This document shows, one piece after another, positions 51,585-52,948 of a stretch of 64,000 bases of DNA; position 1 is the first letter of the stretch, and the number at the start of each line of letters is the position of its first letter. Source of the stretch: Escherichia phage P1. Below the pieces are notes generated by a model. The model was given only the letters and a program-made list of their open reading frames with translations, searched no databases and had not been told where the DNA came from. The position numbers and the translations under genes were made by a program. The stretch is from the sequence record NC_005856.1. One strand, given 5' to 3'.

Positions 51585-51601
51585 TTATAACCATGCATAC
51601 T
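51585..51601. promoter_or_regulatory. C1-operator-like 17-mer (ATTGCTCTAATTATAAC) between repL and the AT-rich cassette
   Basis: 13/17 match to consensus with the conserved ATTGCTCTAAT core; position fits Op55 by map-unit naming. Confidence 0.5.
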
Positions 51602-51739
51602 TTCAACACCTCTAGTTTGCCATGAGGCAAACTCATAGGTGTCCTGGTAAGAGGACACTGTTGCCAAAACTGGACGCCCCATTATTGCAATTAATAAACA
51701 ACTAACGGACAATTCTACCTAACAATAAGTGGAGTTAAC

Positions 51740-52444
51740 ATGTTGAACCGAAGAACATTTAATGTATTCTGCGATGAATCCTGTCACCTACTAAATGATC
51801 ATAATAAAGTCATGGTATTGGGTGCGCTTTGGTGTCCCGGCACTATCACAAAAAAAATTGCTAGAGACATCAAGGAATTAAAATTAAAACACAATCTAAA
51901 ACCTGATTTCGAAATCAAGTGGACTAAAGTATCTGCGTCCAAAGTTGAATTTTACTTAGATGTCGTAGATTACTTCTTCAGCAACCCTGCATTGCGCTTT
52001 AGAGGTGTTGTTGTTCCTGATAAAGAGCAACTGGACCATGCTCGATTCCATCAAGATCATAATACTTTCTATTATAAGATGTTTTTTTATGTCTTAAAAA
52101 ACATAATAGAAAGTAACAACACATACAATATCTACCTAGATATAAAAGATACTTTAGGTATTGAAAAAATTGAGAAATTAAGAGGGGTTCTTCACAATGA
52201 TCGCTATGATTACAATCATGAGTCGATAAACAGAATTCAACATATACGATCTCATGAAGTGCAGCAATTGCAGCTAACGGATCTTTTCATTGGCGCGTTA
52301 GGCTACGTTCATCGAGGAATGAATAGCAACGCGGGAAAAATCCAAGTCATAAACAGAATAAAATCACATACAAACAGGGAGTTACTAAAAAGTACTCTTC
52401 CAACAGAAAGTAAATTTAATATTTTCGTGTGGGAGGCTCGCTGA
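51740..52444 (+). CDS. rlfA: DUF3800-like protein (234 aa) in an AT-rich cassette (P1 rlfA position)
   Basis: N-terminal NVFCDESCH and C-terminal QLQLTDLFIGALGY resemble the DES and Q-x-D hallmarks I associate with DUF3800; GC content visibly lower than flanking genes. Confidence 0.5.
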   Translation: MLNRRTFNVFCDESCHLLNDHNKVMVLGALWCPGTITKKIARDIKELKLKHNLKPDFEIKWTKVSASKVEFYLDVVDYFFSNPALRFRGVVVPDKEQLDHARFHQDHNTFYYKMFFYVLKNIIESNNTYNIYLDIKDTLGIEKIEKLRGVLHNDRYDYNHESINRIQHIRSHEVQQLQLTDLFIGALGYVHRGMNSNAGKIQVINRIKSHTNRELLKSTLPTESKFNIFVWEAR

Positions 52445-52908
52445 TGCTTCAAATGCCAGATTTATTGTACTTCAATGGAAGTTGGCAAGAGTATATAGAC
52501 GATGTATATGATGTTGTTAGAGAAGATATTTTAATATCTAATATAACGTTTAAGGGTCTCCCTGTTCGATTACGTTATTCACCGGAATATAATGGGAAAG
52601 AATTCGGATTTTGGCATTTAGTATCAGAGGGAAAAATAGAAGAAGAACGTATACCCGATCTTGAACGGTGCAAGCGAATTCGCTGGATCGCGCACATGAT
52701 AAGGAATTATAACCATTGCGATATATCATGTTGGTCTGAAAGACGAGGACCAACTGAAGAGTGGGTAATCTGGAATGAGTGTGAAAACTACGTTGTTGTG
52801 CTATCCGCACGTAGAGACTATTGGCTTCTCAAAACAGCCTATGTTGTAACCTATGACAGTAAAATCAGAACACTCAAACAAAGCAGAAAAAGAGCACTTG
52901 GGACATAA
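52444..52908 (+). CDS. rlfB: Hypothetical protein (154 aa from ATG 52444), translationally coupled to the DUF3800-like gene (P1 rlfB position)
   Basis: ATG overlaps the upstream stop (TGATG) with GGGAGG 7 nt upstream; Cys/His-containing; no domain recognised. Confidence 0.5.
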   Translation: MLQMPDLLYFNGSWQEYIDDVYDVVREDILISNITFKGLPVRLRYSPEYNGKEFGFWHLVSEGKIEEERIPDLERCKRIRWIAHMIRNYNHCDISCWSERRGPTEEWVIWNECENYVVVLSARRDYWLLKTAYVVTYDSKIRTLKQSRKRALGT

Positions 52909-52915
52909 AAAGCTG

Positions 52916-52948
52916 AACCCGACACATATTGCTATGTATCGGGTTCGA
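52916..52948 (+). terminator. Hairpin downstream of the AT-rich cassette (terminator candidate)
   Basis: CCCGACACAT-loop-ATGTATCGGG imperfect stem followed by a TTCG/T-rich stretch. Confidence 0.35.

Follow-up and report, generated by a model that had tools for sequence, protein, structure and literature searches.

The rlfA-rlfB gene pair of phage P1 belongs to the candidate defense family PDC-M04

Phage P1 is among the best-studied of all phages, and two of its genes, rlfA and rlfB, have stood under a guessed 'replication-linked' label since 2004. Both lie in a 64,000-nucleotide stretch of the P1 genome (record NC_005856.1; hereafter the window), within an interval, 51585–52948, that is 100% identical and has the same coordinates in the P1 record AF234173.1, which served as our reference for annotation. 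A previous reading of this DNA, made from the sequence alone and without database searches, had singled out the interval as an AT-rich cassette of probable foreign origin and had offered exclusion, defense or a link to replication as its role. The genes rlfA and rlfB are already catalogued, as is the candidate family PDC-M04; to these we add the link between the two, the recognition that RlfA has an RNase H2-type fold and a conserved acidic site, the finding that the genes are strictly paired, an independent estimate of the frequency of embedding in restriction-modification operons, and evidence against a role in replication. We describe the locus and its relatives below, and suggest that the pair is somewhat more probably than not an autonomous mobile nuclease module that serves defense or exclusion, with RlfA as effector and RlfB as its regulator or sensor.

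Two coupled genes in a variable slot of P1

The pair lies downstream of kilA and repL – the lytic replicon, with oriL within repL – and upstream of pmgF, bplB, and pmgG, which are carried on the opposite strand. Gene rlfA (51740–52444, plus strand; rapA in phage P7) codes for a DUF3800 protein of 234 amino acids (aa) with an RNase HII/H2-like fold, a candidate metal-dependent nuclease, and rlfB (52444–52908, plus strand; rapB in P7) codes for its 154-aa obligate partner, which belongs to an orphan family. The two are translationally coupled, as the sequence-only reading had recognized: in GCTGATGC the rlfA stop codon TGA (52442–52444) and the rlfB ATG (52444–52446) share one base, giving the overlap TGATG, and a GGGAGG ribosome-binding site of rlfB, read from the sequence, lies within the 3′ end of rlfA at 52431–52436 (plus strand), 7 nucleotides (nt) ahead of the ATG. 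A list of open reading frames (ORFs) gives a GTG at 52429 as an alternative rlfB start, but 31 homologues begin with ML.MP, which supports the ATG at 52444.

The cassette is also as AT-rich relative to its surroundings as had been proposed, with a G+C content of 0.364 compared with 0.469 for the window (7th percentile of 1169-bp windows) and a third-position G+C content (GC3) of 0.35 in rlfA and 0.32 in rlfB, against 0.44–0.52 in repL, kilA, bplB, and pmgG. Together with the leader of rlfA, a downstream hairpin, and pmgF, the two genes make up a variable low-GC segment (51586–53411) that fills a slot between repL and bplB, and rlfA-rlfB-pmgF has been described as variable region 5 among the eight low-GC regions in which P1-like elements vary (PMC9603915). 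The only other stretches of the window as poor in G+C as the cassette are 3176–7870 and 46426–48445, the second of which reaches the sim-gene annotations (~46.5–48.4 kb); both are consistent with regions that the same account lists as variable and low in G+C, res-mod and simABC (PMC9603915).

That this is a slot for exchangeable cargo is borne out by comparison with other P1-like elements. The repL and bplB flanks match 680 P1-like plasmid records, about 100 of which (~15%) carry rlfAB, and among 5426 complete Escherichia coli genomes the pair is present in 121, nearly always on a plasmid and always at 97–100% identity. In the sampled records without rlfAB, the commonest alternative cargo, present in most of them, is an 81-aa hydrophobic, membrane-like protein together with the type I toxin hokD (plasmid L015, 1197–1779), and other occupants are a 198-aa protein and an Ail/Lom outer-membrane protein (L018, 1625–2221; L019, 1239–1754). 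Some variants of the slot have unannotated gaps of ~1.3 kb, which may be insertion sequences.

Megablast alignments of 50726–53963 with P1-like plasmids break at query positions 860 and 2687, and the left breakpoint, at 51585/51586, falls inside a binding site for the C1 repressor. This operator, Orlf (formerly Op55; ATTGCTCTAATTATAAC, 51575–51591, plus strand), is annotated as a protein_bind feature in both AF234173 and P7 and begins 3 nt after the repL stop codon; it is the C1-operator-like 17-mer that had been noticed upstream of the cassette, and it starts 10 nt before the interval then delimited. Its left part, ATTGCTCTAAT, is kept in the hokD-type plasmid L015, where divergence sets in immediately afterwards, so that this 11-nt half belongs to the P1 backbone, whereas the last 6 nt go with the cargo, reading TATAAC in P1 and CTGGAG in L015 (1150–1170), and the strength of the operator may therefore change with the cargo as well. 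The description of the cassette as a self-contained module is too strong in that half of the operator is backbone and the cargo breakpoint lies within it.

A DUF3800 protein and its fast-evolving partner

RlfA is a member of Pfam family DUF3800 (PF12686), which it matches over profile positions 1–148 of 149 with 54.2 bits (gathering cut-off 21; E = 3.5e-14), so that the family, which had been proposed from motifs alone, proves correct; neither RlfA nor RlfB resembles a replication protein. The defining motifs of DUF3800 are an N-terminal DE and a C-terminal QxxD (PMC7736814), and both are present: the former as D12-E13-S14, the DES that had been pointed out, and the latter as Q178-x-x-D181 rather than the Q-x-D previously read. 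D12-E13, D134, D137, and Q178-x-x-D181 are invariant among 33 RlfA homologues from several phyla. The fold of RlfA is RNase H-like and of the type 2 kind (RNase HII/H2), with strand 1 ending in D12-E13, the strand 127–133 ending in D134, D137 just beyond it, and Q178-x-x-D181 within the helix 175–191. The invariance of these positions makes an intact metal-dependent nuclease site likely, and RlfA is most likely a metal-dependent nuclease acting on RNA or RNA-DNA hybrids.

At the level of sequence RlfA stands apart from the established type 2 enzymes (RNase HII, eukaryotic RNase H2A, and RNase HIII), none of which it matches: Pfam assigns it to DUF3800 only, a phmmer search of the PDB returned no RNase H, and no PDB sequence matched it below E = 0.1. 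The QxxD motif distinguishes it from those families, as does a cluster of cysteine and histidine residues (C11, C15, H16, and C32). C15, H16, and C32 are invariant and C11 is nearly so, and the cluster lies beside the predicted catalytic D12-E13 (motif CDESCH, residues 11–32); it may form a metal-binding site, and we know of no counterpart in RNase HII.

RlfB, which had been described as lacking a recognizable domain, indeed matches no Pfam family, and neither do the 144 diverse relatives that were scanned; a search of PDB sequences with RlfB and two RlfB profiles gave no match below E = 0.1. Across these 144 representatives only H58 is invariant, with F56, W57, R69, R75, R78, and W81 conserved in at least 90%. 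RlfB diverges faster than RlfA in all 76 of the loci that could be matched (mean identity to P1 of 35.7% compared with 52.2%), and its relatives form 1763 clusters at 50% identity. It bears a weak resemblance to RelE and colicin D toxins that is not significant by Foldseek; the 144 members include no match to a Pfam toxin family, and a single DUF4258 match (E = 0.042) is at noise level. RlfB is also some 60 residues longer than the RelE/ParE and colicin D/CdiA (BECR-fold) RNase toxins. We treat this weak likeness as a lead and not as membership of that group.

The annotation of RlfB relatives is uneven. NCBI and RefSeq name them 'oxidoreductase', a name without domain support, and many records, among them RefSeq E. 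coli genomes and incomplete PLSDB plasmid gene tables, list the DUF3800 gene only and leave rlfB unannotated.

Pairing and genomic context across the family

RlfA and RlfB match the PADLOC profiles PDC-M04A (E = 1e-95) and PDC-M04B (E = 1.3e-51), respectively, and the P1 genes are adjacent, co-oriented, and in the same order as the A and B genes of that candidate. The PDC candidates were predicted by "guilt-by-embedding" in BREX, DISARM, or type I restriction-modification operons, and among them this cassette, with 679 recorded occurrences, was 'assigned as candidate PDC-M04' (Payne et al., bioRxiv 10.1101/2024.01.29.577857). The searchable literature contains no link of rlfA or rlfB to defense and no main-text mention of PDC-M04.

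To describe the family we scanned one genome per species (GTDB representatives), which yielded at least 581 RlfA relatives, and took the best 80 of these, with 48–74% identity and from more than 15 phyla, as the context set. The RlfA gene has an overlapping or abutting ORF with a match to the RlfB profile in 79 of the 80 loci, the sole exception being truncated by the end of its contig, and three of the 79 partners are split, apparently by frameshifts. The same holds for viral sequences, where 232 IMG/VR contigs have an RlfA gene: in the best 80 of these loci RlfB is missing only where there is no RlfA ORF (the short fragment L121) or where the contig breaks off shortly after RlfA. Four loci with an intact RlfA gene have an RlfB gene divided into two ORFs (L013, 8684–9178; L038, 884–1381; L079, 6478–7110; L088, 10672–11250), which could reflect frameshifts, a partner in decay, or errors in the sequencing of metagenome-assembled genomes.

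Restriction genes are the most frequent setting, with hsdM, hsdS, or hsdR on the same strand and within 5 kb in at least 34 of the 80 loci, typically in the order hsdM-hsdS-RlfA-RlfB-hsdR or with the pair placed after the end of the operon. Among loci with no hsd match, three carry the pair in a type III locus, with mod on one side and res on the other; in another, DISARM-like locus its neighbors are a DUF1156 methylase and a PLD-SNF2 helicase, and in one more it follows a type IIG-like enzyme. This embedding in type I, type III, and DISARM-like operons, rebuilt here independently, agrees with the definition of PDC-M04, whereas the P1 copy is instead the cargo of a phage-plasmid, located behind an annotated C1 operator and outside any restriction system. 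Individual look-ups showed the pair in a type I operon of Methylomonas and in one of the Anaerolineales that also has MazE/PIN. In Algoriphagus (L011/L012, 4183–15617) a type I operon contains, in this order, hsdM/S, a reverse transcriptase (RVT_1), RlfA, RlfB, hsdR, a 325-aa protein, and a Piwi-domain Argonaute, and has the appearance of a dense stack of defense genes.

Other copies are associated with mobile elements. The closest relative outside P1-like elements (88% identity) is located directly after the integrase of a Rac-like prophage, and in Cronobacter (L006) the RlfA gene lies at the edge of an integrase island; there, 1.5 kb with no called gene (7718–9306) separates fis from the RlfA gene and could be the place of an attachment site or encode a non-coding RNA. 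In Citrobacter (L003–L005, 7988–11319) the pair is flanked by a RhuM-domain gene and a SymE toxin gene, and in L005 it is cargo after the core of a P4-like satellite (psu, ogr/delta, alpA, and primase). A RhuM-domain candidate, PDC-S05, has been reported to be protective (PMC12881386).

The frequent position between specificity and restriction genes is shared with PrrC of the EcoprrI type I locus and with TgvAB of Vibrio cholerae VPI-2, and on a PrrC-like reading the pair would guard restriction itself, as a latent nuclease silenced by the restriction-modification complex and freed once that complex is put out of action by an anti-restriction protein of a phage. In that case the P1 copy would be an orphan, or would work with a restriction system of the host or with P1's own type III system. 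We regard this special case of a defensive role as unlikely: many copies lack neighboring restriction genes (those in P1, in the P4-like satellite, at the prophage end, and in the integrase island), which argues that the module works on its own, and TgvAB also works on its own in spite of being likewise embedded in a type I operon. Moreover, PrrC combines an ABC ATPase with a nuclease in one fusion protein and TgvAB resembles GmrSD, both are unrelated to RlfA and RlfB, and both are nested in a type I operon, unlike the P1 genes. Pfam and PADLOC scans detected no ABC-ATPase or anticodon-nuclease domain in either RlfA or RlfB, the pair thus having neither the ATPase nor the PrrC domain, and the structural similarity of RlfB is weak.

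Neighbors such as MazE/PIN and SymE, together with hokD as the commonest alternative in the P1 slot, bring to mind toxin-antitoxin systems, in which one protein of the pair would be toxic and the other would neutralize it, so that the P1 plasmid or the host operon would be stabilized by the killing of cells that lose it and no immunity would be involved. The small size and overlap of rlfA and rlfB and the faint likeness of RlfB to RelE-family toxins would fit such an arrangement. It appears improbable nonetheless, as Pfam finds no antitoxin-type DNA-binding domain (helix-turn-helix, ribbon-helix-helix, or AbrB) in RlfA or RlfB, P1 already has phd-doc, and a place inside restriction-modification operons, which the pair has across phyla, is what defense cargo typically shows. 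Knock-down of either gene was harmless in infection, in an assay that is blind to addiction.

The same contexts bear on the original annotation. The genes lie directly downstream of repL and oriL and are described in the record as 'possibly associated with lytic replication', and an RNase H2-like fold would suit primer processing, with RlfA acting as an RNase H on the oriL transcript or on an R-loop for RepL-dependent lytic replication. However, RepL homologues accompany the pair at P1-like loci only – in none of the 80 genome loci, none of 12 other bacterial or metagenome loci, and 15 contigs, all P1-like, among the 80 viral loci – and some 85% of P1-like plasmids have kept repL while lacking rlfAB. 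In base composition the cassette is foreign to the backbone, and neither gene is needed for plaque formation: efficiencies of plating upon knock-down by CRISPR interference (CRISPRi) were 1.3 for rlfA and 0.88 for rlfB (PMC10695390), so that both are non-essential for lytic growth. With RepL confined to P1-like copies, repL maintained without rlfAB, and plating unchanged by knock-down, a replication-linked role is largely refuted and we consider it very improbable; of the roles offered by the sequence-only reading, replication is thereby disfavored and defense gains from the match to PDC-M04.

DUF3800 proteins recur in other immune settings: in type VII retrons, as TPR (tetratricopeptide repeat)-DUF3800 proteins beside Cas12a2 and Cas12a3, as Csx32 in the Cas13-associated CASK, and next to DUF3800 structured RNAs. 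In all of these a DUF3800 protein is joined to a separate sensing or guiding component, as RlfA is to RlfB, the difference being that the partner there is a reverse transcriptase, a TPR protein, a Cas protein, or an RNA, and that of RlfA is a small protein. The literature searched reports no demonstrated activity for these other DUF3800 proteins of immune loci.

C1 control, transcription, and the role of the pair

The cassette had been described as repressor-controlled, and such control would act through the annotated operator. Orlf agrees with the 17-mer consensus in 12 of its 17 positions, exactly over the first 11 and mostly not over the last six, and for that reason escapes a search allowing three mismatches. 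The promoter scan found no promoter-like site overlapping Orlf; the predicted sigma-70 promoter PrlfA (51685–51713, plus strand; TTGCAA, 17 nt, GACAAT), annotated as 'predicted' in AF234173, is some 95 nt downstream of the operator and matches at 8 of 12 positions, which is below the threshold of the scan. Four 'PrlfB' promoters annotated inside rlfA are not endorsed, because promoter-like sites in the region are fewer than in shuffled sequences.

Between the operator and rlfA lies a leader of 148 nt (51592–51739, plus strand) with two hairpins (51614–51633, 8-bp stem; 51639–51658, 7-bp stem), neither followed by a run of T residues, and the GGAG ribosome-binding site of rlfA. The region 51572–51745 folds at −44.1 kcal/mol (z = −3.3 compared with 200 shuffles). 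An Rfam scan of 51300–53400 with E values up to 10 detected no DUF3800 RNA motif and returned two chance matches, to a snoRNA and a miRNA.

The terminator scan found no plus-strand terminator between repL and rlfA, and in a P1vir transcriptome rlfB behaves as an early gene together with repL. Given the weakness of PrlfA, the lack of a promoter overlapping the operator, and the continuity from repL to rlfA, the most economical reading is that transcription of the C1-controlled kilA-repL unit continues into rlfAB, which the early behavior of rlfB fits; the pair would probably stand at the end of this C1-repressed transcription unit, with Orlf as a second block ahead of it.

Beyond rlfB, a hairpin with a 14-bp stem (52915–52946) separates the convergent rlfB and pmgF and is terminator-like. 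A hairpin downstream of the pair had been pointed out, and it is present; its clear run of T residues, in the tail AGCTTTTTAT identified by the terminator scan, is on the minus strand, whereas the plus-strand sequence after the stem is GATCGCTCTTTCT, so that it is best read as the terminator on the pmgF side, and is possibly bidirectional. Gene pmgF itself (53074–53370, minus strand; 98 aa; GC3 of 0.33), which is non-essential by CRISPRi, was considered as a third component of the module and rejected, as no homologue occurs near any RlfAB locus outside P1-like elements. In plasmids with other cargo, the 198-aa protein beside bplB has an N-terminal part homologous to PmgF, and the two observations together identify pmgF as a diverged backbone gene; from its sequence, P1 pmgF may be a shortened version of the 198-aa gene.

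A C1 operator directly upstream, early-gene behavior with repL in P1vir, and no terminator-like site between repL and rlfA would also be expected if the pair were made only after C1 repression is lifted, in order to degrade RNA or RNA-DNA hybrids of the host or of a competitor, whether for host takeover or for the destruction of defense nucleic acids such as retron msDNA (multicopy single-stranded DNA) or R-loops. The RNase H2-like fold of RlfA is compatible with such a lytic-phase weapon, which we nevertheless judge to be a poor prospect, since the cassette is mostly chromosomal and located in bacterial restriction operons, where a role directed against the host is implausible, and since there is no effect on plating in the laboratory host.

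We therefore return to an autonomous mobile nuclease pair for defense or exclusion as the reading that we modestly favor. On this account rlfA-rlfB would be a horizontally acquired two-gene accessory module in the P1 cargo slot between repL and the baseplate genes. RlfA would most likely be the effector, through its RNase HII/H2 fold and metal-dependent cleavage of RNA or RNA-DNA hybrids, and RlfB – coupled, always present, and faster-evolving – most likely binds RlfA and supplies regulation or the specificity of the trigger; less probably, RlfB would itself be an RNase of the RelE/colicin D-like kind. Once triggered, the module would cleave the nucleic acid of a rival phage or mobile element, or that of the host in an abortive infection, and competitors would thereby be excluded.

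Several points weigh against this account. The association with defense is one of genomic context only, and the searchable literature reports no anti-phage phenotype for any member of the family; the alternative occupants of the P1 slot, hokD and Ail/Lom, are not classical defense genes. The promoter scan found no convincing promoter belonging to the pair, and if Orlf represses rlfAB in lysogens, then the familiar model in which a prophage defends its host would not apply. As for the proteins, the catalytic residues of RlfA are predicted ones, and RlfB has no significant match in a Foldseek search and none in searches with sequence profiles.

A more far-reaching proposal, which we put forward as speculative and on balance doubtful, is that rlfAB represents a very widespread immune module in which a fast-evolving partner, itself RelE/colicin D-like, gates an RNase H2-like nuclease; bacteria would keep this module within type I, type III, and DISARM operons as a backup set off when restriction is evaded, and P1 would have captured it and put it under its immunity repressor for inter-phage warfare.

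The placement of rlfA and rlfB in PDC-M04 corrects their working annotation, at a time when RefSeq often labels RlfB 'oxidoreductase' or leaves it out. It also gives an abundant restriction-operon cassette, hitherto known from computation alone, a model copy in a genetically tractable E. coli phage-plasmid, for which gene deletion, c1.100 induction, and challenge with phages are routine, and it suggests a possible biochemical activity for DUF3800, a domain that recurs beside retrons, Cas12a2/a3, Cas13, and structured RNAs.

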